64,000 nucleotides of DNA, taken from the IMG/VR virus record IMGVR_UViG_3300025645_000060, positions 4,947-68,946 of that record. One strand, written 5' to 3'. This stretch comes from a virus. The position numbers and the translations under genes were made by a program. This document shows positions 40,202 through 55,265 of the stretch, one piece after another. The notes beneath the pieces are model-generated. The model searched no databases. It was not told the origin of the DNA and saw only the letters and a list, made by a program, of their open reading frames with translations. The first letter of the stretch is position 1. Every line of letters begins with the position of its first letter.

Positions 40202-40216
40202 ACACTTAAAGCTTTT

Positions 40217-40474
40217 TTAATTCATACTGTACGTTACACCACCATCGTAATATATCTTGTACAATGAAGATAATTGATCGTAATCTTCGTTAACTATTAG
40301 CACTGTATCATCTCTTAATACTAATTTACAGTACTCCAACTCATCAGATAGTGGCATATTTAAAGATGGCATATACTCTTGCACACTTAACACATCAGAC
40401 ATATGCATAACCAATCTGTTGGAATACACATTGTTTAAATCATCCCAACTCATATTAACAACTTCAATTACCAT
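40217..40474 (-). CDS. hypothetical protein
   Basis: ORF. Confidence 0.6.
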   Translation of the reverse strand: MVIEVVNMSWDDLNNVYSNRLVMHMSDVLSVQEYMPSLNMPLSDELEYCKLVLRDDTVLIVNEDYDQLSSLYKIYYDGGVTYSMN

Positions 40475-40479
40475 ATTAA

Positions 40480-40683
40480 TTATTTGTCTGAACGAAATAA
40501 ATTTATAATCCTCAACATAAGCTTACCTAACTTTATCCACTTAGATAAACTAAACCACCTCAATGGGCTATACTTCCCTCCAGGGAACACAATGACAACA
40601 CCTTCCATTACTATATTAAGTACCAACACGAATAAAGTATCCTTCTCTAAAGGTGACATTTCATCTACTTTCCTATATTTCAT
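40480..40683 (-). CDS. small amphipathic protein, paralog of 60009-60227
   Basis: FPGGKY...W..LGKL shared; overlaps the stop of the upstream gene. Confidence 0.7.
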   Translation of the reverse strand: MKYRKVDEMSPLEKDTLFVLVLNIVMEGVVIVFPGGKYSPLRWFSLSKWIKLGKLMLRIINLFRSDK

Positions 40684-41108
40684 ATTTCTATTATTGTTAT
40701 AGTTGTTTTATTTACGTTCATATCCTCCATTACCTTCTGCATCCTAACTTTAGTAGCCATCGAGTTCCTTACGTCTGGTTCATTATCATCATCTATCTTG
40801 ATATGCATATCTCCAACAAGTATACATCCTTCTATCTGTCTAAAGAAATTACCTTGATGTATCTTAACCTCAGACCTATTGGGTACTTGCTTCAGTTCCC
40901 AAGAATACCCAAATTTAGGGGAGTACTCCAATACAATTGGATAAGTTCCTTCTGGCACACAAGAAATGTCCTTCCTATTGTTTCTCCACGCTAATTCTAA
41001 TGTTTTGCACTTAAACAGTATCTTCGCTCCATGCATTATATATAGATTACCCAACTTTTGATGTGGATGATCCTCTGATCTAACTAATAAGAATTGTGTT
41101 ACCTCCAT
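40680..41108 (-). CDS. DUF5675-like putative peptidoglycan-acting enzyme
   Basis: CKTLELAW..N....SCVPEGTY...VPNRSEVKIHQGN...EGCILVG. Confidence 0.75.
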   Translation of the reverse strand: MEVTQFLLVRSEDHPHQKLGNLYIMHGAKILFKCKTLELAWRNNRKDISCVPEGTYPIVLEYSPKFGYSWELKQVPNRSEVKIHQGNFFRQIEGCILVGDMHIKIDDDNEPDVRNSMATKVRMQKVMEDMNVNKTTITIIEI

Positions 41109-41140
41109 TTTGTGATGATTTTATTCCGTAAAACTACAAA

Positions 41141-41365
41141 TTATAACTCACTTACACAAGATTGGCATAGATTCCTACCCTTACCAGATGTATCTATTGC
41201 ATAACTAACAGTTTTTGTCGCTGTATCATTCCACACCCTTTTGCATCCATCACACTTAGTCTTGCAAGGCAATCCTCTATAACACATCTTAAATTCTGAT
41301 ATGCCATACCTATCCACCCATACCTTACTAGAGTCTATTTGAAAATCTTCGTAACCCATTTCCAT
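41141..41365 (-). CDS. small Cys-rich protein
   Basis: CDGC...CQSC. Confidence 0.5.
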   Translation of the reverse strand: MEMGYEDFQIDSSKVWVDRYGISEFKMCYRGLPCKTKCDGCKRVWNDTATKTVSYAIDTSGKGRNLCQSCVSEL

Positions 41366-41673
41366 GTTTTTTTAACGATAGAACCTATAACACTATCGGT
41401 TTTTCGTATGTAATTATCATTACTTTCTTTTGCTAAAGCCAACCTCTCGGCTATAATCTTATTTATCTCAGCATTGTCAGCATTGATCTTATCGAGATTA
41501 TCCATAACGCTCTTACAGTAGTCCACTACAGCATCCTCTCCTTTAATTCTGTATATCTTCTTCATTTGACGATACCTACAGTTTGCATGGGGAAATCCAT
41601 TCTTGTCGATACTTATGTCTAATGGCATTGAGTTTGCCAAGTCTCTAAACTGCTTTAATTTTTGCTTCTTCAT
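41335..41673 (-). CDS. hypothetical protein
   Basis: ORF. Confidence 0.55.
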   Translation of the reverse strand: MKKQKLKQFRDLANSMPLDISIDKNGFPHANCRYRQMKKIYRIKGEDAVVDYCKSVMDNLDKINADNAEINKIIAERLALAKESNDNYIRKTDSVIGSIVKKTWKWVTKIFK

Positions 41674-41756
41674 ATTCGTTATACTGATCCGTTAAAGAAT
41701 TGTGGTCTATTTTTCCCATTATTCCATATAAAAACAACCATAATTAGTATTGTACC

Positions 41757-42137
41757 CTAACATCGCCTTACTTTAGAGCAGTTTTCACTAAAAGTTATCC
41801 ATTGTATATTCCCTATTAAATACCCTTTCTCTGGGTCTATCCTATCTATACTAGGGCATATTCTCCTTTCGTAGCTTACAGATTCCCACTTATCAAATAA
41901 CACATTAAATTCATTACTATTTAATGAAAATTCATAGAATAAATCTTTATCTAGTATTTCCAAGCCTAAATAAAGATGATTTTTATTCTTAGTCACACCC
42001 GTAACTCTGCTTTTCATATTCCTATAACACCTAACTAAAAACCCTTTCTTTGTTTTTTCGTATTTCTTAGTGTTTTTATTGTTGTCTTTAACTCTTCTTA
42101 ATCTTTGCTTTTTGTTTTCAATTTCTCGTTTTGTCAT
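41757..42137 (-). CDS. HNH-like (homing-type) endonuclease
   Basis: PSIDRIDPEKGYLIGNIQWITFSEN; has its own -7 box. Confidence 0.7.
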   Translation of the reverse strand: MTKREIENKKQRLRRVKDNNKNTKKYEKTKKGFLVRCYRNMKSRVTGVTKNKNHLYLGLEILDKDLFYEFSLNSNEFNVLFDKWESVSYERRICPSIDRIDPEKGYLIGNIQWITFSENCSKVRRC

Positions 42138-42188
42138 ATCTTATATGTTTAAGATACAAATATACAAAACAATCATGTTAATCACGAA

Positions 42189-43457
42189 TCATTTCCACTT
42201 AAAATAATAAGGGTGCGAATGGTAGCAATCTTCCTTAAAATTGAAATTATAAAAACCGCTTATACCTTTTTTGAAATTAGTTTGAACCCAATTAGATGAA
42301 GGACTAAAAGCAGGGAAATTCCAATATTTGAATTTTTGAGATGTGGAGTTATCAAATATATCTTGATGGCTATCTCCTTTAATAAAGTATATTTCTAAAT
42401 CTTTACTAACTAAATTGTTATCATATAGATAGTTCTCTATTTTTTCAATCTGAATAGCATCTAATTTAGGCTTAAACCCAAACTTTAAATTTTTGCCATC
42501 CTTACCATGAGTAGATACAAATACTTTATTACCGTACACGTAATGATTTATAAATTTACGTTGGTTAGTTATGTTTACATTATTATACTTATACTCTATA
42601 AACTTCTTAAATGATGAATTAACCACATAAGAAAAGCTTCCAGAATGGTTGTCATCACAAATATTTATAACATCAATCTGTGAGTAATGCTTTACTAATT
42701 CGTCAATTAATCGAACCTTAAAAGATAACCCAACATCGAAAGCTTTTTCGTTATCCATGTTTTGAGGTAACTCATGCCCTTTACGTACCGTTTCGCCATC
42801 CCATCCATCCATGAAATCACCTAAATCAAATAAAATTAATTTATTAGACTTCTTATTTTCTATTATTTTACTTGCGTAAATAGATAACCTTTCTTCAACT
42901 TCGTACTCATCCCATTTACCCCCATATAAACCGTACCCATTAGGATTTGGATTCATTGCAATATGGGTATCAGTAAAGACAGAAACATCAAAAAGATAAC
43001 TACTATCAATATCTTTGACAGTTGTTTTAATAGGTTTCGTTCCTTTATATAACTCCTCTATTGATTCGCTTAACAAATTAACTAAATCAGGTTCTTTGTT
43101 ATCTGTTGTGTTTTCTCTAAATAGTATATTGAAAAACGGTGTTCCAGTATGAGATACTAACTTATAACTCTTAACATCCTCTCTAGGTAAGCTGTAAAAC
43201 TCGCAATACTCATCTATATCAAGCATCTTACCTGTCACGAAATTCCAAGCACTTAATACAAATGGTTTCGGATCATCAACTACCTTAGTAGACTTTGCTT
43301 TTTTGACAGATTTCTTCTTTCGATCTGAAATACCAATAAAATCTCTTTGCTCTTGAGTAATATAATACCTAGCAGTATCCCTACCTTCATCGTTACTCTT
43401 TACTTCTAAACCCAAAGACTTCGCTTCCTCTGGCATTAACCTAGTTCTTACTTTCAT
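42189..43457 (-). CDS. calcineurin-like metallophosphoesterase (phage A)
   Basis: DTH, GDFMD, DNH, HG and GDSH motifs. Confidence 0.75.
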   Translation of the reverse strand: MKVRTRLMPEEAKSLGLEVKSNDEGRDTARYYITQEQRDFIGISDRKKKSVKKAKSTKVVDDPKPFVLSAWNFVTGKMLDIDEYCEFYSLPREDVKSYKLVSHTGTPFFNILFRENTTDNKEPDLVNLLSESIEELYKGTKPIKTTVKDIDSSYLFDVSVFTDTHIAMNPNPNGYGLYGGKWDEYEVEERLSIYASKIIENKKSNKLILFDLGDFMDGWDGETVRKGHELPQNMDNEKAFDVGLSFKVRLIDELVKHYSQIDVINICDDNHSGSFSYVVNSSFKKFIEYKYNNVNITNQRKFINHYVYGNKVFVSTHGKDGKNLKFGFKPKLDAIQIEKIENYLYDNNLVSKDLEIYFIKGDSHQDIFDNSTSQKFKYWNFPAFSPSSNWVQTNFKKGISGFYNFNFKEDCYHSHPYYFKWK

Positions 43458-43624
43458 TAACTTCAGTTTTTTTGTATGAAATAACAGACACTAACCCTAA
43501 TTTGAATGGCTTGGTGAGTTATATCTAATTCACTTTGTATACTTTTTTAGACTTATCTAGTACCCCAACTTCTTGCTCGTGGTCAATGATACGAACTAAT
43601 ACGTGAGGAATACCATTTAAGTAC

Positions 43625-44032
43625 TTAATTCTCTTCCTCTTTGCCATATATATCTTCTTTAAATTCTTCATAACGTATAAAATATCTTATATTCTGAAAA
43701 TCTGAGCCAAAACCTCCATTGTACATCATCACCAACTGACTCTCAGTCGGCTCAAATCCATACTCTCTAGTAAATCTAGTATGTAGTATCTTTAAATACC
43801 CCTCTGCAACCACATAAGCCTTCTTGTAGTCAAGCATTTCTTCGTGTTGATAACAGTAGCCGTAAGTGTCGTTAACGTCTTGTAGTGCCGCCCTATGTAT
43901 CTGAAATGCCCCAATAGCATCAAAGTCGCAACTGTACTTGTTCCAATCTCCCATTGCACATGGATCACTATTACTTTCAATTACAGAAATCACAGAAAGT
44001 ATTATTGGTATTAATTTAATCATTTCTCTCAA
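43625..44032 (-). CDS. lysozyme/SLT-like muralytic enzyme
   Basis: VIES...AIGAFQI...YNGG; hydrophobic N-terminus. Confidence 0.65.
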   Translation of the reverse strand: MREMIKLIPIILSVISVIESNSDPCAMGDWNKYSCDFDAIGAFQIHRAALQDVNDTYGYCYQHEEMLDYKKAYVVAEGYLKILHTRFTREYGFEPTESQLVMMYNGGFGSDFQNIRYFIRYEEFKEDIYGKEEEN

Positions 44033-44133
44033 ATCTATTTATTTAGAAAGCGCATATGCAATAAGCATCCATAACGCCAATTGACTTAACACTAAAAATT
44101 CCATCATATTGTTTTATATTTTAGTTAAAAAAA

Positions 44134-44191
44134 AGATAACAGCCGATAAGATTCAACGCTAAAAAGCGCAGAACTTATCTATTCGTTTTTT
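44134..44191 (+). mobile_element. attC-like site 1 (A-tract class)
   Basis: GATAAC...GATAAG(A)TTC-CGCT/AGCG-GAACTTATC...CGTT hairpin. Confidence 0.65.
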
Positions 44192-44279
44192 TGCCTTCAA
44201 CACGTGCTTATAGAATCGGCACAAAGCCTGTTCATATCTTTGCTTTGCTGAACTATTAGCATAAGTACCATAAAAGTTT

Positions 44280-44474
44280 TCATTTCTTAAAATTTTCAAT
44301 TAAGTAATCTCCTACTGATACTTCGTGCGGCTTTCCACTATTTCTTCCGTACCTTTCTTTATATTCTTTAATAATCTGATTCGCTTTTGCTTCGAGATTT
44401 TTATTGCCGATTATTTCCTCTAGTATATCTAATAATTTAATATACTTTTCTTTCAATCTGTTTTTTAGTTTCAT
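44280..44474 (-). CDS. hypothetical protein, possible cassette cargo (MKLKNRL...)
   Basis: Lies between attC-like sites 1 and 2; the longer ORF call runs through site 2 and another gene. Confidence 0.5.
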   Translation of the reverse strand: MKLKNRLKEKYIKLLDILEEIIGNKNLEAKANQIIKEYKERYGRNSGKPHEVSVGDYLIENFKK

Positions 44475-44499
44475 TGTATTTATAGTTGAGTTTGTGAAA

Positions 44500-44556
44500 A
44501 AATAACAGTCGAAGATCATGCCATCGGAAAGGACGGCAGATTTCTTAGCGTTGTGT
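44500..44556 (+). mobile_element. attC-like site 2 (A-tract class)
   Basis: AATAACAGTC-GAAGATC-TGCC...GGCA-GATTTC...CGTTGTGT. Confidence 0.7.
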
Positions 44557-44562
44557 GTAATA

Positions 44563-44772
44563 CTAGCAACTACCATATCTGAAACTACCAAATCCTTCAC
44601 CATCGCATTCCTCATCTACAAAGAATCCAAGTTTATCAAGTTCTTCAATATCTTCCTTACTTACTAATTCAGGGTTTATATCTACATAAAAGTAGTCGTG
44701 TTCACAATGGCTTGGGTTTCTTGGGTTGCCATATTTTAAAAGGATTTGTAATGCTTTAATTAAATCTTCCAT
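44563..44772 (-). CDS. cassette cargo, small acidic protein
   Basis: Fills cassette 44551-44898. Confidence 0.7.
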   Translation of the reverse strand: MEDLIKALQILLKYGNPRNPSHCEHDYFYVDINPELVSKEDIEELDKLGFFVDEECDGEGFGSFRYGSC

Positions 44773-44809
44773 CTTATTTATTTAGTTTGTGGCTTAAATT
44801 CCGTACTAC

Positions 44810-44904
44810 ACACAACAATGTATATAGTTTATAAGCCAATTAATATTTGTTTTCAATTGTAATTTTCTGCTATGGCTTACAAAACCATATACTCAACGTT
44901 AGTA
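44810..44904 (+). mobile_element. attC-like site 3
   Basis: ACACAAC-AAT-GTATATAGTTTATAAGCCA...TGGCTTACAAAACCATATAC-TCAAC-GTTAGTA. Confidence 0.85.
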
Positions 44905-44943
44905 ACAATTATTTTTTTTTGCCACCAAGCAGTACGCACTTAC

Positions 44944-45411
44944 TCAATCGTTATTATAATGCTTTAAATAAGGCTGTTCTTTTTTGGTACATTTCTTTTT
45001 CCATCGTTTGTCTAAAAAGATTATATATCTAAATTGTCTTAGTGTTTCTTTTGTGGCTTTCTCTTTAAAACCACGCCTTTCCAACTCAGCCTTTTTATTT
45101 CGGTTGTTATTCGTTATTAAACTATTATGGTATGTTTTCCCCTCAAAGTTCCAGAAAGTACTTGTATGCTCACCAAAATAACTAAAATTAGCCGCTTGGT
45201 AAACAATACCTAAACCTCCACACCGTTCATCTGCAAAACTTTGAATCCACTTAACAGTCTTGTATTTACCTTTAATGTATTTTATGCTATAACTTATGGC
45301 TTTACTTTCTGTATTTTTAACAGCCTTATCATCAAACCACATTCTATTAAGTTCCTTGTATTGGTTTAGTTTCGTTCCTGTAACTAAAGAGCCTCCGCTT
45401 TGTGGGTTCAT
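44944..45411 (-). pseudogene. Mom-like/GNAT DNA-modification protein, apparently 5'-truncated
   Basis: ELNRMWFDD...ESKAIS...IQSFADERCG..GIVYQAANF; the N-terminal part and a closing attC are missing. Confidence 0.55.
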
Positions 45412-45555
45412 AGCATTATGCCGTTTACCTCAGTCATGTATTCTTTAAAAGTCATATTCTCGTTATTTATACCGCCTCAGACGGTGTTTAGCTTTTTCGT
45501 TATCACATAAGTTAACAAACATAAATTAATGTAAACATATCTGACTACATTTTGA

Positions 45556-45655
45556 AATGGAGTAGCGATTAAAGTTTCACCTCAATAACCACCACTCCAA
45601 ATAACCTGCCTTGGTAGCGACTCCAGAACATCAAATGATGCAACGACAGCAGCGA
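45556..45655 (-). ncRNA. candidate structured RNA, copy 1
   Basis: Homologous to 59911-60012; G.U-containing stem around GAGGTGAAAC. Confidence 0.65.
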
Positions 45656-45660
45656 CTCAG

Positions 45661-46053
45661 CTAAGAGTCGATATCTTTAAATATATTTTCCAAGTCTTTC
45701 TTTAAATACTCGTAGTTCAGTGCAGTATATCTAAGAACCTTCCATCCTAGTATAGCTGCGTTATTGTACTTTTCGCAATCTTTACTGTAGCCTGTAATGG
45801 AAGTGTGTCGGCTCTTATGTCCTACAATTCCCTCATACTCTATAGCCACATTGATACTCAGTATAGCAACATCAAATCTCCATCGCCTAGTCTTGTGGAA
45901 TCTATGTTCTTCTACGTAGGCTATTTCCATCTCGTCAAGTATGTTCAGTATATTAACCAAACCAACAGGTCTATTGTCAACTAGATCTTCCGCTCCTTTT
46001 ACTCTGCGCCCTTTATTCTTTAACTTCTCTACATCCTTTTTAGTCCATTTCAT
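45661..46053 (-). CDS. PD-(D/E)XK nuclease (DUF559-like)
   Basis: EHRFHKTRRWRFDVA...AIEYEG...KYNNAAILGWKVLR. Confidence 0.8.
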   Translation of the reverse strand: MKWTKKDVEKLKNKGRRVKGAEDLVDNRPVGLVNILNILDEMEIAYVEEHRFHKTRRWRFDVAILSINVAIEYEGIVGHKSRHTSITGYSKDCEKYNNAAILGWKVLRYTALNYEYLKKDLENIFKDIDS

Positions 46054-46075
46054 GTAACAAAAATACTAAAAAAAA

Positions 46076-46134
46076 AAATAACAGTCGATGAAGATTCAAC
46101 GATAAGAATCGCAGAACTTATCTCTTCGTTGTGC
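46076..46134 (+). mobile_element. attC-like site 4 (A-tract class; head of the main array)
   Basis: Near copy of site 1; ends CGTTGTGC. Confidence 0.75.
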
Positions 46135-46139
46135 GCAAT

Positions 46140-46367
46140 TTAAGCAACATCTGCACTTTTATAGTCAGAAGGCTCAAATCCTGCGTTCCAAAAAAATAGT
46201 GTACCTCTTTTTAGTTTCTTTTTTGTGTCTTGATGCTCACATTCTACTTTCCTTTTTTCAATCGGTTTTTCGCACCTCTCACCATCTGAATTGATGAAGT
46301 AAACCAAGTCGCCTTCTTTTACTTCTTTACCATTTGATAATTTTGTCTTTTTAAATAATCCGAACAT
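46140..46367 (-). CDS. cassette cargo, paralog of 47324-47554
   Basis: Cassette 46129-46503; FINSDGERCE...GTLFFWN. Confidence 0.75.
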   Translation of the reverse strand: MFGLFKKTKLSNGKEVKEGDLVYFINSDGERCEKPIEKRKVECEHQDTKKKLKRGTLFFWNAGFEPSDYKSADVA

Positions 46368-46378
46368 AATAAAACTGC

Positions 46379-46509
46379 GCACAACATTGTATATAAATCA
46401 GTGGCGTTGTACGTCTTTTTAACCACTTTTAGCTGTTTTATTTAGTTTAAGCGTGTTGGCAATCTATCAGCTATTAATCGCCACCGCTTCATATACTTAG
46501 CCGTTATCT
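46379..46509 (+). mobile_element. attC-like site 5
   Basis: GCACAAC-ATT-GTATATAAATCAGTGGCG...CGCCACCGCTTCATATAC-TTAGCC-GTTATCT. Confidence 0.85.
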
Positions 46510-46516
46510 ACAATAT

Positions 46517-46705
46517 CTATTTTGCCGCCCTCTTATATGTATTCACCCACACAAACCTTCTGCATATATAACAAAATACCTGTGTATTGCCCGTTTTAAT
46601 TTGCTTGTCTGCCCAATCGAACCATTGGTTATAACCATCTGGTTCTTTCATCTGATGTTTTATATGTGGGTGTACACATATTGTGTCTTTCTTTTTAAAG
46701 CACAT
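46517..46705 (-). CDS. cassette cargo, small Cys/His protein
   Basis: Cassette 46504-47028; EPDGYNQWFDWA...CYIC. Confidence 0.65.
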   Translation of the reverse strand: MCFKKKDTICVHPHIKHQMKEPDGYNQWFDWADKQIKTGNTQVFCYICRRFVWVNTYKRAAK

Positions 46706-46925
46706 ATTTATATACTATATATTCATTTATAAACTTGTACATATGGTCTAATCTCCAACCACCTTTAGTTTTCCATAGCCATGTAGTATAATCTTTTAGT
46801 ATTTCAATTTCTTTTTTTTTGTATTTACCTTCTACTATATTGATAATCTCGTCAATATCGCCTTGTAATAAGGTGACATTATGATTGTCTGCCATATAGT
46901 CAAATAGGTCTTGATTTTCCTCCAT
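46695..46925 (-). CDS. cassette cargo, hypothetical protein
   Basis: Second gene of cassette 46504-47028. Confidence 0.65.
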   Translation of the reverse strand: MEENQDLFDYMADNHNVTLLQGDIDEIINIVEGKYKKKEIEILKDYTTWLWKTKGGWRLDHMYKFINEYIVYKYVL

Positions 46926-46978
46926 AATTTGATTTTTTTAATTTTAAAAAAGCTCCGCAGCTAAAAAATAGATACTGT

Positions 46979-47034
46979 AGATAACAGTAGATACGATGTC
47001 ATACGAGTACGACACATATCATCTGCCGTTACCA
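46979..47034 (+). mobile_element. attC-like site 6
   Basis: AGATAAC...GATA-TGTC-TAC/GTA-GACA-TATC...CGTTACCA. Confidence 0.8.
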
Positions 47035-47040
47035 ATAATA

Positions 47041-47223
47041 CTAAATTTTAGTACTATCAATTAACTCGTTGTATTCTTCAATCCACTCAATAGGTATTTT
47101 CATACTTGCATCGTAGTATCTTACAATTGCACCTCTTACTTCTTGTAGCCTTTCAAGTCTATTTACAAACTTAGGTTTCAATCCTATTGGTGGCATTTCT
47201 ACTTTTTCGTGTTCTTTTTTCAT
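47041..47223 (-). CDS. cassette cargo, small phage protein
   Basis: Cassette 47029-47313; PPIGLKP...IPIEWIEEYNEL. Confidence 0.7.
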   Translation of the reverse strand: MKKEHEKVEMPPIGLKPKFVNRLERLQEVRGAIVRYYDASMKIPIEWIEEYNELIDSTKI

Positions 47224-47264
47224 CTTTTCTATTTATTAAGTTATTTCTATTTAATCCGTACTAT

Positions 47265-47319
47265 TGGTAACAACACCTATACGCCATACAAATACAGGCG
47301 CATAGCCAAACCGTTATGC
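47265..47319 (+). mobile_element. attC-like site 7
   Basis: TGGTAAC...CTATACGCC...GGCGCATAG...CGTTATGC. Confidence 0.8.
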
Positions 47320-47323
47320 GCAA

Positions 47324-47554
47324 TTAAACAATAAACGCATTCTTGTAATCTGAAATATTAAATCCAATATTCCAGAAAAACAAAGTTCCTTTTTTCAGCC
47401 TTTCACCAGTATCATTGTGTGTTGTCTTAAATTTCCTACATTGTATTAAACCTTCGCATCTTTCACCATCTGAGTTTATAAAAGCAATCTTATCGCCTTC
47501 TTTTACCTCAGTACCATTAAATAGTTTTGTTTTTCTTTGCTTAAATAAGTTCAT
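47324..47554 (-). CDS. cassette cargo, paralog of 46140-46367
   Basis: Cassette 47314-47660. Confidence 0.75.
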   Translation of the reverse strand: MNLFKQRKTKLFNGTEVKEGDKIAFINSDGERCEGLIQCRKFKTTHNDTGERLKKGTLFFWNIGFNISDYKNAFIV

Positions 47555-47572
47555 AATCAACCAATTAACGGC

Positions 47573-47666
47573 ACACAACATTGTATATAGTTAATGCGCC
47601 AATGAAGTTGAGTGCTTAATTCAATCGTTTGTTGTAGGCGCACTAACCATATACCTACCGTTGTAC
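47573..47666 (+). mobile_element. attC-like site 8
   Basis: ACACAAC-ATT-GTATATAGTTAATGCGCC...GGCGCACTAACCATATAC-CTACC-GTTGTAC. Confidence 0.85.
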
Positions 47667-47670
47667 GCCA

Positions 47671-47934
47671 TTAAAGCCTACTCCCCCAATAATCATCCCA
47701 CAACTCTTGGTAATATTCATAGCTTTCTTGTTGGCAGTATTTGCAACCTATTGCATAATTGCTTTCTTCATCTACATAAGCAGTATTCATTCTGTACCTT
47801 TTGGGGTATAAAAACCATCCATGCAAGGGGCAGTATCCCAACGCCCACCACACAAAACGGCGTACAACAATAAATAAACGCAATTGTTTACGCTCTTTCT
47901 GTTGCTTATGTGTTATATTTTCAAAGTCTTTCAT
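47671..47934 (-). CDS. cassette cargo whose 5' part overlaps attC site 9
   Basis: Cassette 47661-47973; probable ATG in the attC loop. Confidence 0.6.
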   Translation of the reverse strand: MKDFENITHKQQKERKQLRLFIVVRRFVWWALGYCPLHGWFLYPKRYRMNTAYVDEESNYAIGCKYCQQESYEYYQELWDDYWGSRL

Positions 47935-47979
47935 TTTATCAAATTTAGTGTTCAACTGCGTTTATTATCAACGTTACCT
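47862..47979 (+). mobile_element. attC-like site 9 (abuts the terS stop codon)
   Basis: GTACAAC...AATAAACGCAATTG...CAACTGCGTTTATT-ATCAAC-GTTACCT. Confidence 0.85.
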
Positions 47980-48361
47980 ACAGATCGTCACCAGCTTCAT
48001 CTATTACATTATTCTTTGCTGCTGCCGCATCTAGTAACTTTCTATCTTTTGGACTCAACCCAAAAAGACTAGATAGTTTAATGATATTCGCTATTGCTTT
48101 ATTTCGGATCGCCACCTCTGGTCTAGCTTGTCTGTAATCATTACCAGCTATAAATGTCAGGCCATCTTCTAATGCTTCATTACATATGTTAACAGTGTTT
48201 ATCGCTTGCGCTAAAAGTGATAATGATATTTGATCTTTTTGCAGATCAATAGACCCTTCCAGGTTAATTAATATTTGATCATATATTCTTTGATCTTCTT
48301 GCGCTCTTTTTATTAATTCCGCTTCGGTTGGTTTGTTTGATTTCAATTTTTTTAATGCCAT
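47978..48361 (-). CDS. terS: terminase small subunit, P27 family (phage B)
   Basis: EDGLTF...RPEVAIRNKA...LSSLFGLSPKDRKLL. Confidence 0.85.
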   Translation of the reverse strand: MALKKLKSNKPTEAELIKRAQEDQRIYDQILINLEGSIDLQKDQISLSLLAQAINTVNICNEALEDGLTFIAGNDYRQARPEVAIRNKAIANIIKLSSLFGLSPKDRKLLDAAAAKNNVIDEAGDDL

Positions 48362-48372
48362 TTTTTAAATTT

Positions 48373-48609
48373 TTAAAAAGATAATATTACAAAATCTTTA
48401 TGTAAACCATATTTTTCACAATTTTTTAATATATATTTAATTTTTACTTTTATTTTTTTATTTGTGTAAAATTCGTTTTTAATTTCATGTAAAGTAATAT
48501 AATCTCCAATTTTATAATTTTTAGAATTTTTTCTTAATTCAAAATTTTTATTTCCGTTTTTTATTTCTTTAAAATATTTAGATAAAATATCAAGATCGTG
48601 GTTTTTCAT
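48373..48609 (-). CDS. DUF3850/ASCH(PUA)-domain protein
   Basis: HDLDILSKYFKEIKNGNKNFELRKN...YKIGD.ITLHE. Confidence 0.8.
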   Translation of the reverse strand: MKNHDLDILSKYFKEIKNGNKNFELRKNSKNYKIGDYITLHEIKNEFYTNKKIKVKIKYILKNCEKYGLHKDFVILSF

Positions 48610-48610
48610 T

Positions 48611-49780
48611 TTAAAAAATTGATAATTGATTTTGAGCAATTTCTTTATAAGCATCAGCATTAAAAGTAATTAAATTTGTATTTGTTTCATTTTTATCACC
48701 AATAAATTTGTAAGATTTAGATATTCTTGTTGAAGTTTTAAATGTACCTGTAGAAGCAATTTTTTTCGATTGCATCATTTCTGCTTTTTTTTCTCCGTTG
48801 GTTCCCGATGTGAATAACCAATTATTAGATCTTTCAAATGATTTCCACAAAGCTGGATTTGATGTTTTTATATAAATAGTTTTATTGTCGTTTTTATAAA
48901 CTTGACCAAACCAATTTACAAATTTAAAACCAATACCCATTCCCTGAAAATCTGGCAAAACTACCACTCTAGAAATCCTATATCCGTTTTTTATATTACC
49001 ATGAGGAAAAGGAAGAATAGCCATAAAAGCTATTGGTTTATCATTATACAAACTTACAAAATTTTTAGCTGCTTTATTTAAATTTTCAGTTAGATAGTGA
49101 TGTTGCTTGAATATATCCCAAGTTTCATATCTACATCGAAATATCTGTAATTCAATTTTTGGTTTTCCTTGCCGAAGATAGTCCGTCTTCTCTAGACGGC
49201 CTTTTAGTGGAGAATAAGTCCAATCAGGTTGCAACCATTCCATAATGTCAAAATGACAAGAAGCAAGAATTATTTTTTTGTTATTTCGCCGAATATATTT
49301 TTGTAAAGCGTTAGACATAGCTTTAGCGACATCTCTATCTACTACGGATGTAAATTCATCTATCAATATTATATCTCCATTTTTTGCTTTTCCTACTTTA
49401 TATGCTAATGAAGCTCTATATTGTTCTCCGTTTGATAATAAATTAAATGGTCTTAACCATGTTGGAACAGAAGCCAAACCCATAGCAGATAATAAAAAAG
49501 TAGCTTCTTTTGGTTCTAACCAATCAAAATTAGATATTAATGGTTTTTGTTCATCAAATTTATCAATATTCAAATTTCCAAATTCTTTCAATAAAGTTGT
49601 TTTCCCAGTACCAGACCCACCATATATAACTCCTATATTCCAATCAAAAGTTTTACATTCAGAAAAATTTATAGGAATTTTTACAATTGTTTCTTTTTTG
49701 TTTTGAATATCAAAAGCTTCATATATGTATTCAGTATACTTATCATTTATTATTTTATTTCTTTTTTCAATGTATTTCAT
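48611..49780 (-). CDS. ABC-type ATPase fused to a GNAT acetyltransferase
   Basis: GGSGTGKT, LSNGEQYR, IDEFTS, then SRVVVLPDFQGMGIG. Confidence 0.85.
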   Translation of the reverse strand: MKYIEKRNKIINDKYTEYIYEAFDIQNKKETIVKIPINFSECKTFDWNIGVIYGGSGTGKTTLLKEFGNLNIDKFDEQKPLISNFDWLEPKEATFLLSAMGLASVPTWLRPFNLLSNGEQYRASLAYKVGKAKNGDIILIDEFTSVVDRDVAKAMSNALQKYIRRNNKKIILASCHFDIMEWLQPDWTYSPLKGRLEKTDYLRQGKPKIELQIFRCRYETWDIFKQHHYLTENLNKAAKNFVSLYNDKPIAFMAILPFPHGNIKNGYRISRVVVLPDFQGMGIGFKFVNWFGQVYKNDNKTIYIKTSNPALWKSFERSNNWLFTSGTNGEKKAEMMQSKKIASTGTFKTSTRISKSYKFIGDKNETNTNLITFNADAYKEIAQNQLSIF

Positions 49781-49876
49781 AATTTTTATTTATTAAATTT
49801 TTGTTTTAAGCTCCCCTATAGTCAAAAAAGATAAAAAATGTGTGTGTGTTTATGCAGCCGTTTACACTGCCTCTCG

Positions 49877-50227
49877 CTAATTGCATTTCCAAGACGACCC
49901 CCTATGTGGAATTAATTCTTGGTCTATGTTCTTAACGCTTGTTATGTATATATCTCTTGATTCATCGCTGGATTTCTTCGCATGACAACCATTGCACAAT
50001 GCTTGATGGTTGCGGATGTCCCAGAATGATCCGCCAATTCTTACTGGGATAATATGATCTACACATCTTGACTGGCCACCACATCCAACACATTTAGGAT
50101 TGTCCAATCTATATTGTTTACTATGCTTTCTCCAATCCATCGAATGATATACGCTTGTATCATGGTTGGCTTTACGTTTTGTTTGCTTTGGTTTAGTCCT
50201 TCTTGACCGCTTGTTCATTGATGGCAT
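49877..50227 (-). CDS. HNH endonuclease (terminase-associated type)
   Basis: CVGC...VDHIIP...GG...NHQALCNGCHAKKS. Confidence 0.9.
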   Translation of the reverse strand: MPSMNKRSRRTKPKQTKRKANHDTSVYHSMDWRKHSKQYRLDNPKCVGCGGQSRCVDHIIPVRIGGSFWDIRNHQALCNGCHAKKSSDESRDIYITSVKNIDQELIPHRGSSWKCN

Positions 50228-50267
50228 ACAAATATAACTATTTATTATTTAATGTCTTTTTCGCTTA

Positions 50268-50486
50268 ATGTGTACATAGTGTACATGATGTACGTTGAAA
50301 TCTCTATTAGTATATAGAACTGTATATGTATATATATATATATATACATACGCTTTATTATATAAATATATATAGAAAAGGTATGTACACTATGTACACA
50401 TTAGCTTATAGCTATATATACAAGGCGTTTCAAGGTGTACATACCTTAGATTCAACTATGTACAAGGTATGTACACTATGTACACT
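50268..50486. repeat. putative replication origin: TGTACAC iterons around a (TA)n tract
   Basis: AAGGTATGTACACTATGTACAC at 50378-50399 and 50464-50485; inverted copies near 50270 and 50435. Confidence 0.7.
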
Positions 50487-50493
50487 TTTAGCC

Positions 50494-52869
50494 TTAAAAT
50501 GGCATATCTTCATCAATATCACTAATATCTGTCTGTTCTGCTTTAAAATCTGTCTGATAAGATGTAAGATTTGGATCAACTCTTTTAATTTTCCAGCAAC
50601 TTACCGGAACATTATTACCAGTTATAGATTTAAATCTCTTCCTTTTACCCTTCTCAAATCCTATTTCATTTAGTTTTATTCCTAATAATTGACCACTACA
50701 TTCATATTTGTGCAGACCTAATAACTCCTTTATCTCATAAGTTGCACTAACATGATCCTCACTAGACTCAAAATTCTCTATCAAAAACTCCTTAACCAAA
50801 TCAACTTCTTTTAATTCATCTCTTGTGGATAGGTATTCCATCTCTTCATTGGTCGTACTGGTCAACATCGTCTTATCTTTAGCGTTATCATATATATACT
50901 TTAATTCAGACCATAAATTATCTATACCGCTTTCTTGTATCTTATCAAATGCTTCCTGGTCTCTATCATCTACTTTAAGCGGAAATACTCGCCTATTATC
51001 ACGCTCATCGCTTCCTAACACGTTATTATCATTGGTTGTGGCACATAGTACCGCATATCGTCTGTGTGTGTCTGTACTGCGCTGATATGGCGCTCTAAAC
51101 GTTAATGTCTCAGAAGATAATACTGACTTAATCCAATCTTTGTCCTTGCTGCCAGTTCCAGTAATATCATCACGCAATACTAAAATATTCTCGCACATCA
51201 TCGCTTTTGCATCCTCATCCTTGCGAGGAAAATCTTTAATAGTTATAAAATATTTATCTAATGATTTAGGCAATAGGTTTTTAAAAAAGTAAGTCTTTCC
51301 GTTGTTCATCTTGCCGGTCAATACCAACATTAGTTCGGCCGCTGATACTTGATAACCAGATGTAAGAAATTGCAATAGCCATTTTGTAAATAGACCAAAA
51401 CAAAGTTTCTTTTCATCTTCATTATCAAACTCTACATTTAGCGAATCAAACAATTTGTAAATTGTTGACTGTTTGCCTACTGGCTCAATTGCAGTTAGTG
51501 AATCAAAATATTTTTCAAATGGATGATAGCTAGGCAAACGATCAGATTCTATATAATCATAAACTAACTGCTTACTGATTTTTGGATTGTCCTTAACTAT
51601 ATCTAAATAAATAGAAACATAATCTCTTTCTTTCAATTGTATCAATTCTTTAGTTTCAACCCTATTTGTCATTAAATTAGTAACCAATCCAATCTTCTCA
51701 ATATGTTGCTCAATAGTATCATATTGTTTATTATCTGCCTTTGTCTTTTCTTTTTTAAAAGCATCTTTGCCAGCATTAATGATCTGTCGCTGATCGGTTG
51801 AATCTGTTGAGTAAGCAGATAAATCAATTGCCATTAAGTCCATGATAGTATCATGTGATGCAGTTGGAATTTCAGCATATTTAGTTTTTATCCTTTCTAT
51901 TAAACTACTCGCTCCGGCATCCCATTGCTCGCCGTATCCATCATTATATAAATCTTTCGCATTACTAGTCATACTGTCTTTAGAAGTATCACCATAGCGC
52001 ACCAAACATCTTAAAGCTGATGGAGAATAAGGTTGTTCTGGCTCAAATACTGTCGATGATGAAAACACCTTAAAAAGCCGCTTTTCTTTGTGGAAATTTC
52101 CGCTATACTTTGCATCTGTTTCCCCAGGGCGCAACCAATACGATCTTTGGTTATCTTCATATACAAAGCTAAAACCAGCCGTATCCAATTCGTTCATCCA
52201 ATCATCTTTCGCATTGTAATCTGTCCACGATGTTAGACGATAATCTTTGTCTGTTCTTGGTATATATGTCGGCTCAGATTTCTTAACGCTTGGCGCTTGA
52301 TATTCGTTAAAATCTTTAGCAATATCAAATATGGCTTTTCTATCAAACCTTGACCAATTAGGAATATTATCTAAGCTTGCGTTATACATTACAGAATAGT
52401 TTGGCGATGGTGGAGCAATTACATAACCGCCTTGTCCTCTTGTTTCTATCCTAACCGGAATTACATTATTGGCTTTCTTCTTTTGCGCTAGCTTTAAATT
52501 TCCGCAACTAATATCATCTGGCGGATTATTCATATCAAAATCATTCCTAAAATAAATATGATATCCTTTTCTTGTTTTAATGGTTAAAATCATATGACCA
52601 TTGCCATCAAAGTAATTTAGTATGGCATCATAAAATTGCGGAAATACGCTGGCATCATCAATATCAATCACTTCTAAGTTATCGCTAATTGACCCGCAGA
52701 TAACACCAATCATTTCCGATTTACCAAAATATTGAACTACTTCCGTTTCGCTCATTTTAGCTTTTTGATATTTCTTCCAACTAGGCAAAGCTGGTTTTTT
52801 CTTTAAATCGCAAGGAATTACAGAAAGATTTTTATCAATAAATTGCTGCGCTTGTTTTTGTTGTATCAT
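50494..52869 (-). CDS. bifunctional primase-polymerase fused to a VirE/VapE-type helicase
   Basis: VIDID, GYHIYF, ETRGQGGYVIAPPS; GKMNNGKT; FRAPY; NRRVFP. Confidence 0.9.
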   Translation of the reverse strand: MIQQKQAQQFIDKNLSVIPCDLKKKPALPSWKKYQKAKMSETEVVQYFGKSEMIGVICGSISDNLEVIDIDDASVFPQFYDAILNYFDGNGHMILTIKTRKGYHIYFRNDFDMNNPPDDISCGNLKLAQKKKANNVIPVRIETRGQGGYVIAPPSPNYSVMYNASLDNIPNWSRFDRKAIFDIAKDFNEYQAPSVKKSEPTYIPRTDKDYRLTSWTDYNAKDDWMNELDTAGFSFVYEDNQRSYWLRPGETDAKYSGNFHKEKRLFKVFSSSTVFEPEQPYSPSALRCLVRYGDTSKDSMTSNAKDLYNDGYGEQWDAGASSLIERIKTKYAEIPTASHDTIMDLMAIDLSAYSTDSTDQRQIINAGKDAFKKEKTKADNKQYDTIEQHIEKIGLVTNLMTNRVETKELIQLKERDYVSIYLDIVKDNPKISKQLVYDYIESDRLPSYHPFEKYFDSLTAIEPVGKQSTIYKLFDSLNVEFDNEDEKKLCFGLFTKWLLQFLTSGYQVSAAELMLVLTGKMNNGKTYFFKNLLPKSLDKYFITIKDFPRKDEDAKAMMCENILVLRDDITGTGSKDKDWIKSVLSSETLTFRAPYQRSTDTHRRYAVLCATTNDNNVLGSDERDNRRVFPLKVDDRDQEAFDKIQESGIDNLWSELKYIYDNAKDKTMLTSTTNEEMEYLSTRDELKEVDLVKEFLIENFESSEDHVSATYEIKELLGLHKYECSGQLLGIKLNEIGFEKGKRKRFKSITGNNVPVSCWKIKRVDPNLTSYQTDFKAEQTDISDIDEDMPF

Positions 52870-52934
52870 AGTCTAATCCTCTTTAAAAAATAATGTAAAA
52901 AATAAAATCGCAAAAAGTATTTGAAGAAACAAAA

Positions 52935-53327
52935 TCATATTGCTACTTTTTTAATTTCTTGATGAATCTTTGCGGCCCATGATAATGGTTTAATGTTATC
53001 CGGCTTTGAGTATGTTGGCCTAATTATTTTTTTTAAATTCTTTTTAGCACAATAATTCCGAACATAATGAACTTTAACATTAAGATCAAATGATATTTCT
53101 TTATAAGTTTTTGACAAATAATTATCTTCGATATATTGTTTATCATCATCATGCAAGACAGTATATATCTCAAGATTATTTCTTTTGAAATAAGCTCTAA
53201 CAGTTGGTCCTGGTCTATTTATTTTTTTGGCAATTTGATTGACCGGCATTGTAGTTCGGTTTTCTAGCATAAAAGCTATATCGCTTTCTGATAGTTTTTT
53301 GTTCTTTCTTCCAGTTTTTGTTTTCAT
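52935..53327 (-). CDS. tandem-HTH DNA-binding protein
   Basis: Two repeats of the type IAKKINR.GPTV / ISFDLNVKVHYV. Confidence 0.6.
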   Translation of the reverse strand: MKTKTGRKNKKLSESDIAFMLENRTTMPVNQIAKKINRPGPTVRAYFKRNNLEIYTVLHDDDKQYIEDNYLSKTYKEISFDLNVKVHYVRNYCAKKNLKKIIRPTYSKPDNIKPLSWAAKIHQEIKKVAI

Positions 53328-53435
53328 AATTTAGTTTTAAACTTTTAAAAAAATGCGGTGTAATGTCTTAAATTCGGTTTCACTACACCGCTCCATATAT
53401 CAGCGCAAAGCATACATATAGGATTAAAAAGTATT

Positions 53436-53633
53436 TTACAATTTCAATTCATCTCTATCCACCATTCCTTTTTCATCTATCAGATGGCCATATTTTTTAT
53501 ATGCTTTTTGATAAGTTAGATTATACATTTGAATCAGCTTATGAATATGAATTGAACGATTAAGATATCTATTAGCATCTTTTGGTATTGGTTTTGCAGA
53601 TATTCTTCTTGAACTTATTTTACTTCTTGGCAT
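53436..53633 (-). CDS. small basic protein, paralog of 36901-37062
   Basis: YKKYGHLIDEKGMV. Confidence 0.7.
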   Translation of the reverse strand: MPRSKISSRRISAKPIPKDANRYLNRSIHIHKLIQMYNLTYQKAYKKYGHLIDEKGMVDRDELKL

Positions 53634-53844
53634 TACTTATTCTTTATTTTTTTAGAAAAGTTGAGAGCCGGAGTTTCGACCCTCCAGCCGCTCTCAACGA
53701 AACTACACTATCAAATTCGATACTTTTATCAAAATTGATAAACTTCTTTATGCTCCCATATTGATGAACCACCACAATGCCAGGATTACAAATATTTGTA
53801 ATTTTAGCAAGTCAATAAATTTAATTTTTGGATTTTGCATAGTT

Positions 53845-54105
53845 TTAGTTTTTATTATTTATTGATTCTAAAAAATGTTCTTCATCATCGAAACCTAATA
53901 ATTGACAAATATAATCTGAGTTAAACCAAAATAAATCATTTATTTCTGTTTCAGTTGGTATATAACCACCGCCGCCATCTTTATATTCTTCTTCTAAAAA
54001 AACATCTAATATTTCTAATTGATTATAAGTTAATTTATCAGCTAACGATTTAGCGCCGGCCCAAAATTTAAATTCTTTTAAAGAAGTATTTGTAGTGTAA
54101 ATCAT
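53845..54105 (-). CDS. small acidic phage protein
   Basis: FKFWAGA...TETEINDLFWF. Confidence 0.7.
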   Translation of the reverse strand: MIYTTNTSLKEFKFWAGAKSLADKLTYNQLEILDVFLEEEYKDGGGGYIPTETEINDLFWFNSDYICQLLGFDDEEHFLESINNKN

Positions 54106-54128
54106 AATTTTTAGTTTAAAATGTGAGA
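54103..54128 (-). promoter_or_regulatory. duplicated 26-bp leader TCTCACATTTTAAACTAAAAATTATG (second copy at 54435-54460)
   Basis: Identical sequence ending in the ATG of two consecutive genes. Confidence 0.75.
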
Positions 54129-54176
54129 TTAAAAAGAGGACTTATTTTTGTGCCTCTGTAGGTTTTTATTTGTTCC

Positions 54177-54437
54177 TCATGTCCATTCTAAACGCTTTTG
54201 GGTATTTTTTATACATGATGAACCAAGATAAAAAATACCTTGTGACGCTTCTCCTATCGCCGCCATATCTTCTTCTGTAATGTGTGCTTCAACTACTTTT
54301 GGTCCTTCTATTGTATTAACTGCACAATCTTTATTCTCTAATGGTTTTCCGCAGCAAGCACAAGTGTTGTCGTTGTAACCATATTTATAGATGTTTCTAT
54401 CAAAAGAAGCCGTTTGAATAAAATCTAATGTTTTCAT
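54177..54437 (-). CDS. small Cys-motif protein
   Basis: CACCGKP...GSSC. Confidence 0.6.
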   Translation of the reverse strand: MKTLDFIQTASFDRNIYKYGYNDNTCACCGKPLENKDCAVNTIEGPKVVEAHITEEDMAAIGEASQGIFYLGSSCIKNTQKRLEWT

Positions 54438-54916
54438 AATTTTTAGTTTAAAATGTGAGATATTTAATTAATTTAATGCAATATACAGCCAATAACTAAT
54501 TGCTTGTATATTTTTTTGGCGATTATTTGAAAAAATATTGTAATTATCATAAAAACCGATGTTCTTGACTGAAAACATTATGCTAAAATCAGCAAGATAC
54601 CAATACCATTTTTTCTTTTAATACCATGACCAATAGCATATATCAAAGCGCTGTCCTCATTTGATCTATGGGTAATTCACCTTGTGAAGTGATGAAAATC
54701 TGTAATAATTGCGGAAAAAGACATAATAATATAATGATACTCATATTAGTTTAATTGTAATGATAAGTAAATCCCATAATCGTTTCGGTTTGATCTTCAT
54801 TAAAACATACGAGCAACACAGTTTCGTATAGCTTATATTCGACATAATCAATAATAAATACATCCATAATAGTTTGTTACATTTTGTACTTTACAAATGT
54901 AATAATAATTATTTTA

Positions 54917-54924
54917 TATATTTG
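54917..54924 (+). promoter_or_regulatory. -7 box (TATATTTG) of the rightward operon
   Basis: TAnnTTTG 30 bp upstream of 54954. Confidence 0.6.
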
Positions 54925-54953
54925 CAACATACAATTAAACTAAAATCTCAACT

Positions 54954-55253: not shown

Positions 55254-55265
55254 AAGTAGGATAAC

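Follow-up and report, generated by a model that had tools for sequence, protein, structure and literature searches.

Layout of the record and its terminal repeat

The window analyzed here is a stretch of 64,000 nt (positions 4,947 to 68,946) of the IMG/VR viral record IMGVR_UViG_3300025645_000060, whose total length is 68,946 bp; coordinates are those of the window unless stated otherwise. Four blocks describe its layout:

1..46912, minus strand: main part of the loop, the rest being record positions 1-4946, left of the window
43460..47977, minus strand: whole cassette array, accessory genes with intervening sites built as YAACG(G) - imperfect hairpin - CTGTTAT - T-run
46913..47031, no strand given: repeat R, an exact duplicate of contig positions 1-119
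47032..64000, minus strand: the stick, a partial genome from a B-type phage, collinear with the related contig L003 over 47974-58712

Record positions 1-119 are 100% identical over 119 bp to window positions 46913-47031, and this repeat, R, is the sole long exact repeat within the contig. Closed at R, the contig gives a circle of 51,858 bp, and the record thus takes the shape of a lollipop with a 51,858-bp loop and a 16,969-bp stick. Read on the minus strand, R consists of a TAACGG core, an imperfect hairpin and the first 13 nt of the gene g76; an exact 30-nt piece of it had no match in viral_contigs. An assembler k of 119 or 120 might account for the length of the overlap. The initial annotation had missed this terminal duplication.

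The GC content is 36.8% in the loop versus 33.9% in the stick. We considered this contrast as evidence for two phages and rejected it, since the gap is too small and the loop's own array is already at 32.9%. CheckV estimates the completeness of the record as 72%, implying an expected length near 96 kb, a figure for which we have no explanation.

Two phage lineages in one contig

The genes of the loop that bear on its assignment to a phage lineage, here called A, are:

38250-39593: terL
39593-40201: putative terS, by position only
27740-29539: portal
24026-27406 and 29646-30308: head proteins
17109-21080: tape measure
3334-10622: tail fibres
362-1351: YqaJ nuclease (24.8 bits, cut-off 22)
left of the window: DnaB, SSB and HNH

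The loop is a complete genome of an A-type siphovirus. An independent genome, G001 (48,765 bp, CheckV completeness 98%), is circularly permuted relative to it and matches 50 of its 76 ORFs in the same order; the HNH gene of G001 is split over the contig ends, thus G001 closes into a circle and runs from HNH directly to the array and terL. G001 has no stick module: it matches five of the 25 stick ORFs, each at a locus that also matches a loop gene, except for g97, whose match is the counterpart of an intergenic gap of the loop. Among the 12 matches listed (of 81) for isolates with an A-type portal, 11 are named phages with genomes of 43.2-49.0 kb, sizes which fit 52 kb and not 69 kb. The portal search in viral_contigs gave G001 as the only relative, so that the genome size of the A type is taken from one close genome and distant isolates; the loop DnaB had no confirmed relatives in viral_contigs, the DnaB of G001 being reached via the terL locus instead. 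Moreover, a megablast of 36000-52000 against isolate phages returned only two short gene-sized matches (Nonlabens and Cellulophaga phages).

The stick, in turn, carries these genes of the second lineage, B:

61287-63998: tail fibre, truncated by the contig end
without assigned coordinates: small membrane proteins
60224-60751: M15 endolysin (Peptidase_M15_3)
58455-59645, plus strand: SbcD-like protein, recombination block
58090-58416, plus strand: nuclease, recombination block
56822-58093, plus strand: helicase, recombination block
56031-56828, plus strand: YqaJ nuclease (61.9 bits), recombination block
50494-52869: primase-helicase
49877-50227: HNH
48611-49780: ATPase-acetyltransferase
48373-48660: ASCH-like protein
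47978..48361, minus strand: g80, B-type small terminase (P27 / Terminase_4; Pfam Terminase_4 and phrog_83)

The product of g80 matches Pfam Terminase_4 with 37.2 bits (cut-off 24.7, E = 4e-9) as well as phrog_83, and shares 76-82% amino acid identity with its counterparts in L002-L004, the B-type contigs that the stick matches and that have their own terL. All three follow the order primase-helicase, HNH, terS, 4-9 accessory genes and phrog_9 terL; in L002, the sole contig reaching further, terL is followed by portal, protease and capsid. Three cassettes lie beyond terS in the stick; no B-type terL, portal or capsid was found there or anywhere else in the contig, and the tail fibre 61287-63998 had no relatives in viral_contigs.

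The HK97-like packaging module consists of HNH, P27-type terS and terL. The stick and its relatives resemble it in having HNH just upstream of the Terminase_4 terS, and the relatives also in having phrog_9 terL, portal, protease and capsid downstream; they differ from it in that a variable array of 1.5-5.4 kb parts terS from terL in the relatives, whereas terL is missing from this contig.

The claim of the initial annotation that the contig joins two phage lineages is thus borne out, the loop matching A-type G001 and the stick B-type L002-L004. It had drawn this from functions duplicated to the left and right of the array, a list that holds in part. YqaJ is present twice (362-1351 and 56031-56828), as are the tail fibres (3334-7557 and 61287-63998, 64% identity over 99 aa), and terS as well if the left-hand copy is accepted by position: 39593-40201 has no family match, and it adjoins terL in all three relatives reaching that far. 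The pair described as metallophosphoesterases (42189-43457 and 58455-59645) is duplicated only as the SbcD-like "DNA repair exonuclease" phrog_704, neither member matching the Pfam metallophosphoesterase family. A second lytic enzyme was not identified on the left, the Peptidase_M15_3 protein at 60224-60751 being the only one found. The gene pair called holin-like exists as two copies of a ~70-aa protein (2738-2947 and 61031-61243, 75% identical), for which the label is tentative, as the proteins had no family match and are only weakly hydrophobic. We also found two HNH genes (record positions 117-467 and window positions 49877-50227).

The cassette array and its TAACG(G) core

At the side of the stick, the array is divided as follows:

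47972..47977, minus strand: core GTAACG, adjoining the terS stop and opening the B-type array as its first cassette boundary
47659..47971, minus strand: g79 cassette (gene 47671-47955)
47311..47658, minus strand: g78 cassette (gene 47324-47581, paralogous to g74 at 46140-46382)
47026..47310, minus strand: g77 cassette (gene 47041-47223)
46496..47031, minus strand: cassette unit of R, g76 (46695-46925) and g75 (46517-46705), with TAACGG cores at both ends

Two of these cassettes are missing from some public contigs. The g79 cassette is bypassed by a joint from 47658 to 47972 at AACG, and the g77 cassette by one from 47025 to 47311 at the common letters TAACGG, both in the runs X1, X3 and X4 and also in the contig L029; the deletions are precise, 285 nt (g77) and 313 nt (g79) with TAACGG and AACG at their ends, respectively, and come from runs of two studies besides L029. 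In L029 a B-type terS is followed by g78 (positions 469-820, 99.7% identical to the g78 cassette) and then by the R-g76-g75 unit (815-1344, 94.9% identical); positions 1-199 of L016, a contig from another metagenome, are 99% identical to part of this unit, the identity stopping at TAACGG, and g75 is followed there by 2-3 cassettes and a B-type terL. These two layouts indicate that R-g76-g75 is native to B arrays. The g76 protein had no relatives in viral_contigs or metagenome_contigs. As the initial annotation had supposed, the cassette system is shared: cassettes are common to both lineages at 95-99.7% nucleotide identity, and in every case seen the identity between contexts starts or stops at TAACG(G). 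Methyltransferases are among the accessory genes of the relatives' arrays.

These near-identical cassettes in two lineages, the break at a 5-6-nt core and the cassette-precise presence/absence variants are direct evidence for a pool of cassettes that is exchanged among unrelated phages and sited between HNH/terS and terL. This pool may also help to explain why the B-type loci (n = 14) all lie on short contigs, of 4.3-18.6 kb.

The initial annotation had noted that the B-type terS is followed not by its terL but by an attC site with a crossover 2-4 nt from the terS stop. A cassette boundary does lie there, AACG coming 2 nt after the stop and the joints described above falling exactly on it, but it bears no sign of a join: the passage from terS into a cassette is not anomalous, since terS, array and terL follow each other in all three B-type relatives and terS leads into the array in L029 as well. 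Because R-g76-g75 sits elsewhere behind a B-type terS and upstream of a B-type terL, the switch must lie inside the shared cassettes, left of R, between about 47031 and 44100 (~47.03-44.1 kb), rather than at the terS stop; the likeliest place for the assembly to have crossed from B to A is the R-g76-g75 unit.

In the passages that Qi et al. 2023 (PMC9892861) devote to them, CALINs are clusters of attC sites lacking an integrase, found in virulent phages, the published cases including Flavobacteriia phages such as Polaribacter phage P12002L. The array described here resembles them, as characterized in those passages, in its small accessory genes, the short structured sites between them and the lack of a phage integrase. 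It departs from them in its exchange point, which is the TAACG(G) core on the gene-proximal 5' side of the site and not the canonical point between the G and TTRRRY of R'; read in gene orientation, the core is not GTTRRRY. Those passages do not describe arrays sited, as here, between HNH/terS and terL. The hairpins are also weak: imperfect ones are visible at most sites, none is predicted at 47972..47977, and the DNA folds of these candidate attC-like sites have z values of -0.1 to -2.5, with one of eight below -2. A search of the contig in six frames for the integron integrase / tyrosine recombinase family PF00589 gave no match (control genomes, 14/14), and neither did the contig match the serine recombinase family PF00239 (control genomes, 13/14); the absence of an integrase is compatible only with the integrase-less CALIN class.

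Sequencing depth and the origin of the contig

Depth was taken at the level of Logan contigs, each of which has a single value, in two samples, S1 (runs X1 and X2) and S2. In X1 it was 18.8 for 40000-44215 and 17.7 for 51191-56507; in X2 it was ~32-37 on the A side and 24.5-41 on the side of the stick. At g75/g76 the depth was 44.1 in X1 and 44.8 in X2, that is, ~2.4x and ~1.3x over the flanks, and we regard the figures as noisy because this ratio differs between the two runs. Together with the single figure per contig, this disagreement led us to reject depth as an arbiter. The cassette regions are repeats in the assembly graph of the sample, with raised depth (44 at g75/g76, 72-142 near 44.85 kb) and many loose ends. 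None of the pieces listed for X1 spans 46529-47972, and no spanning evidence for or against the join was seen among the Logan contigs. In S2 the stick was present at ~4-6x with 0-2 differences per 1.3-1.7 kb, while the depth of 40000-44001 was 0 in most bins (one partial bin, 42668-43334), a hint that phage B exists without this part of A.

The initial annotation had offered two readings, attC-mediated fusion of co-infecting phages or mis-assembly through a shared cassette, and the evidence favours the latter. We consider it likely that the contig is an assembly chimera of two unrelated, co-existing phages and not a fused virus. The terminal repeat and the presence of two lineages are shown, and so are a loop that is complete as a genome, the occurrence of the shared cassette in B-type arrays of independent contigs and a polymorphism precise to the cassette. 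Phage A would be a siphovirus of ~52 kb with HNH, cassette array, terS, terL, portal, head, tail, tail fibre, lysis and replication genes; phage B would be HK97-like, with tail fibre, lysis, recombination and replication genes, HNH, P27-type terS, cassette array and its own terL, portal and capsid. In both, terL would be preceded by an array of small mobile cassettes with TAACG(G) at their borders, and at least one cassette (R + g76 + g75, ~530 bp) would be identical in the two. Being longer than a short read, this cassette would be reduced to a single graph edge, which the assembler would have entered from the B branch and left on the A side; it would then have gone once round the A circle and halted on meeting the shared edge again, the 119-bp terminal duplication being left over. 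If the assembler behaved in this way, no molecule would carry the B-to-A join.

Such a chimera presupposes that the junction occurs in both lineages. It is seen on the B side in L029 and L016, whereas on the A side the passage from HNH to R occurs only in this contig, G001 having no R. The main evidence against it is the near-equal depth of both sides, which one molecule predicts directly and which would be a coincidence for two independent phages, although equal coverage is where assemblers chimerise most readily. The chimeric contigs treated by Roux et al. 2017 (PMC5610896) are alike in that a region of high similarity lets co-existing viruses, two in number, be assembled as a single contig; the shared region here, in contrast to those described there, is neither a conserved core gene nor a strain variant but a ~530-bp mobile cassette, present in two phages whose packaging and head genes are unrelated. 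A terminal duplication, and a complete genome with a further piece attached, are what an assembly path through a repeat typically leaves. The record should not serve as a genome as it stands, its size being inflated, its functions duplicated and its P27 terS paired with a foreign terL; in curation, the ~52-kb circular genome should be separated from the 17-kb fragment. More interesting than the artefact is its cause, namely the same small cassettes in two lineages with different packaging and head genes.

A genuine cointegrate or recombination intermediate, formed between A and B within the shared cassette in co-infected cells, seems unlikely to us. Either homologous exchange along the ~530 identical bp or site-specific exchange between TAACGG cores would give rise to it, and it would have the order B-left, R, whole A, R, B-right, the contig being its assemblable part. 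The topology is exactly the one expected (B upstream arm, R, all of A, R again), the A and B arms are equal in depth in S1, and the cores are recombinogenic in the population, as is attested by the exact loss of single cassettes in two studies as well as in L029; the length of ~96 kb implied by CheckV also fits A plus a B genome of ~44 kb, which may be coincidence. However, a molecule of ~100 kb would be unpackageable by relatives of 43-49 kb and should be rare, not dominant; the contig encodes no tyrosine or serine recombinase (no match for either family); and, with B-upstream/R/A-downstream and A-upstream/R present, the reciprocal junction is unseen, the contig ending inside R, 119 bp in. 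A simple mixture of both phages yields the same graph. It is correspondingly doubtful that phages with unrelated terminases, portals and capsids, sharing a freshwater Bacteroidota host, recombine in vivo at identical cassettes; if they did, the array upstream of terL would be a hot spot for fusing or swapping whole genome arms between lineages without a phage-encoded integrase.

Still less probable is a hybrid phage that coexists with A and has the early arm of B (tail fibre to terS) grafted on the late arm of A, the common late genes producing a graph bubble through which the contig threads both arms. The stick does share the gene order of the loop segment whose place it would take (tail fibre, 70-aa protein, lysis, nuclease and replication genes, HNH, array) and the two tail fibres have domains in common, but the late genes should then have the summed depth of A and the hybrid, whereas in X1 40000-44215 (18.8) is close to the stick (17.7), leaving ~1x for A, a depth insufficient for the assembly of the 12 kb found in A alone. 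Moreover, the B-type terS, which travels with phrog_9 terL in all three relatives, would be left with a foreign terL, and the N-termini of the tail fibres are ~59% identical at the contig end with no reconvergence visible there. Equal depth can also be taken as a sign of a single mosaic genome of at least 69 kb that holds both arms and has R as a real direct repeat, a reading to which we give very little credence. Such a genome would exceed G001 and the loop in size by 33-40%, with two syntenic early/lysis/tail-fibre arms in tandem and an orphan P27 terS; the stick is wholly absent from G001, and S2 has the stick without 40000-44001. Uniform depth and the lack of a second terL/capsid set, which the initial annotation had proposed as the mark of one mosaic phage, are formally what the contig displays; they are outweighed, since the contig stops short of where the head genes of B would lie, and the loop by itself amounts to a complete genome.

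Shape and gene content of the contig

The record is 68,946 bp long, the window being its bases 4947-68946; it is classed as linear in IMG/VR and was given a completeness of 72% by CheckV, which on 68.9 kb would put the full length at about 96 kb; its close relative G001, an independent A-type genome of 48.8 kb, scored 98%. Comparison of the record with itself revealed that genome positions 1-119 recur with 100% identity at genome 51859-51977, and no other long exact repeat was found in this comparison. As this repeat, R, lies both at the start of the record and inside it, the contig has the shape of a lollipop, composed of a loop (the A-type part) and a stick (the B-type part). A total of 101 ORFs were called, nearly all on the minus strand, and the larger ones were scanned against PHROGs and Pfam.

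Features of the loop and the stick (window coordinates unless marked genome; minus strand for nearly all genes)
46913-47031 (genome 51859-51977): R, inside the interval flagged by the initial annotation, 100% identical to genome 1-119
genome 1-51858: loop, 51,858 bp
genome 117-467: loop HNH, its stop codon TAA overlapping the TAACGG at the start of R; the cassette array follows in gene order
39593-40201: 202-aa gene, putative terS by position, matching no family; terL follows
38250-39593: terL (phrog_2)
29646-30308: small head protein
27740-29539: portal; structural proteins follow in gene order
17109-21080: tape measure; tail proteins follow in gene order
3334-10622: tail fibres
362-1351: YqaJ exonuclease, with small proteins before it and a second HNH, DnaB and SSB after it
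47032-64000: stick, 16,969 bp
61287-63998: tail fibre, truncated by the contig end
60224-60751: M15 peptidase endolysin, with two small membrane-type proteins
56031-59645, plus strand: block of YqaJ, helicase, nuclease and SbcD-like protein
50494-52869: primase-helicase
49877-50227: stick HNH
48373-49780: ATPase-acetyltransferase (phrog_11143) and ASCH-like gene, between HNH and terS
47978-48361: terS (Terminase_4); three cassettes follow

The loop holds one full phage gene set; terL, portal and capsid genes were absent from the stick in the scans of the larger ORFs. The duplication of functions on both sides of the array, described in the initial annotation, is mostly real, except that no lytic enzyme was identified on the left and that the terS on that side is assigned by position only; the "holin-like" label derives solely from size and modest hydrophobicity.

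Several internal repeats were also observed. Three consecutive tail-fibre genes in 3334-10622 share long repeats (~75% nucleotide identity), the products of 3334-7557 and 7559-9436 sharing 61% identity over 444 aa. Two iteron-like arrays (34914-35023 and 35576-35681) lie in the early, low-GC part of the loop, with four 28-nt repeats at 25-31 nt spacing and one 18-nt tandem repeat, and the stick has an exact 28-nt repeat (54102-54129 and 54434-54461) upstream of two adjacent 86-aa genes. Between the primase-helicase and HNH of the stick (50263-50492), many direct and inverted copies of ATGTACACTATGTACAC flank an AT-rich palindrome, a candidate origin or packaging signal.

Relatives of the loop and the stick

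A terL search of IMG/VR returned five loci, one of them in G001 (48,765 bp, 98% complete). Fifty of the 76 loop ORFs match this genome in conserved order; only five of the 25 stick ORFs have a match there, and these hits fall where a loop gene matches as well or, in the case of g97, at the position corresponding to a gap between loop genes. G001 is a closed circle, because its HNH gene is divided between its two ends (residues 1-21 at 48698-48760, residues 24-116 at 2-280), and in it SSB and HNH run straight into accessory genes, the putative terS and terL, exactly the order predicted by closing the present contig at R. Of the 81 isolate records matched by the A-type portal, 12 were listed, 11 of them named phages with genomes of 43.2-49.0 kb. 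By these comparisons, the loop is a complete A-type genome.

For the stick, a primase-helicase search of IMG/VR gave three contigs (L002-L004), all of which carry primase-helicase, HNH, terS (76-82% aa identity), four to nine accessory genes, methyltransferases included, and a phrog_9 terL. L003 is collinear with window 47974-58712 (68-90% nucleotide identity), the accessory region of L004 has a 242-bp stretch 99% identical to window 44549-44790, and L002 continues beyond terL with portal (phrog_12), protease and major head protein; neither these three genes nor a phrog_9 terL were found in the present contig. The stick is therefore a piece of another phage, of the B type. The terS does end at a cassette boundary, as initially noted; however, with terS, variable array and terL in this order in L002-L004, the native B-type layout, its position is no anomaly.

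The slot between HNH and terS is also variable, being occupied by a methyltransferase in L002 (6685-7473) and empty in L003 and L004; in the stick, the HNH stop is followed by GTAAACGG. All 14 loci bearing a B-type or related terL (L014-L027) lie on short contigs of 4.3-18.6 kb, and assemblies of this phage group may regularly be broken up by arrays of shared cassettes.

Passage between the two parts and origin of the contig

Two further B-type contigs bear on the junction. L029 (an independent JGI contig, 2,488 bp) has a B-type terS (94% nucleotide identity) directly followed by the g78 unit (99.7%) and then directly by R, g76 and g75 (94.9% over 530 bp), past which lie an L003-like methyltransferase cassette and then the site and the beginning of the 44280-44615 gene (92%). 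L016 (5,364 bp) begins inside g75 (99% over 199 bp, identity stopping at TAACGG) and continues with two or three other small genes and a B-type terL. These arrangements show that R-g76-g75 belongs natively in B-type arrays and that R, in the present contig, has a genuine B junction at its right edge; since the contexts of R (after the A HNH and after the B g77) diverge exactly at TAACGG, the B-to-A passage has to lie left of R.

Public Logan contigs from two studies (five runs found, of which four, X1-X4, were aligned) narrow this down. The best candidate is the common unit 47031-46496, with contig depths of 44.1 in X1 and 44.8 in X2, where a long X1 piece (45411-46529) ends; at the latest, the passage occurs in the highly repeated region at ~44.8 kb (depth 72-142, several loose ends). 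Separately, contigs in X2 and X3 run from 49709 back to 47927 across 17 unmatched letters, which suggests that other genomes have a further arrangement near terS.

The initial annotation proposed either a fusion of two phage genomes at the array or a mis-assembly through a common cassette. This pair of alternatives is supported, and mis-assembly is the better reading: the contig is likely an assembly chimera of two phages, and the fusion probably not real. Phage A would carry HNH-R-g76-g75-g74 and onwards, and phage B g77-R-g76-g75-X-terL. A mixture of both and a cointegrate (B-R-A-R-B) yield identical assembly graphs, the data here being contigs and not reads. A chimera is favoured because the loop by itself makes up a complete genome of the expected size, each parental layout is known from independent contigs (A in G001, B in L029 and L016) and the stick lacks genes that always accompany its B-type counterparts. 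Moreover, public sample S2 contains the stick at ~4-6x (0-2 differences per 1.3-1.7 kb) and next to nothing of window 40000-44001.

A real cointegrate or recombination intermediate is unlikely, as a molecule of ~100 kb exceeds what phages of this size class package and the contig encodes no recombinase (no matches to PF00589 or PF00239, with positive controls matched). It would nevertheless agree with the near-equal depth of A-specific and B-specific contigs in sample S1 (18.8 versus 17.7 in X1; ~32-37 versus 24.5-41 in X2), which speaks against a chimera, as do the CheckV completeness of 72% and an A-side HNH-to-R junction known from the present contig alone. We regard a hybrid phage coexisting with A as quite improbable, and one mosaic genome of at least 69 kb as slightly more so.

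The shared cassette pool

The feature that is real, and that deserves attention, is a pool of small cassettes that two lineages with no packaging or head genes in common exchange at a TAACG(G) core, in agreement with the initial proposal that both phages share the cassette system. In X1, X3 and X4, one joint (47025 to 47311, TAACGG in common) skips the 285 nt of the g77 cassette and another (47658 to 47972, AACG in common) the 313 nt of the g79 cassette, and L029 combines both absences on one contig; contigs spanning the two studies also show a cassette-sized deletion of 1575 nt at 44495-46071. These deletions reflect individual cassettes being gained and lost across the population.

The elements between genes, read on the minus strand, consist of a stop codon followed by YAACG(G), an imperfect inverted repeat, then CTGTTAT and often a T-run. 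DNA folds are weak at eight sites (z from -0.1 to -2.5, one below -2), and the site past the terS stop has the core and no hairpin. Among published systems, the closest to this array are the integrase-less attC clusters (CALIN) that PMC9892861 reports from virulent phages, a Polaribacter phage among them. The array is at most a candidate member of this class; its exchange point, in gene orientation, differs from the canonical attC G|TTRRRY.

A 23-nt motif (plus-strand consensus AACNGCRCACAACATTGTATATA) is present a short distance upstream of three cassette genes, at 44804-44826, 46373-46395 and 47567-47589, and may be a promoter carried by the cassettes or else belong to the site; two of these genes (46140-46382 and 47324-47581) are paralogues with 59% aa identity.
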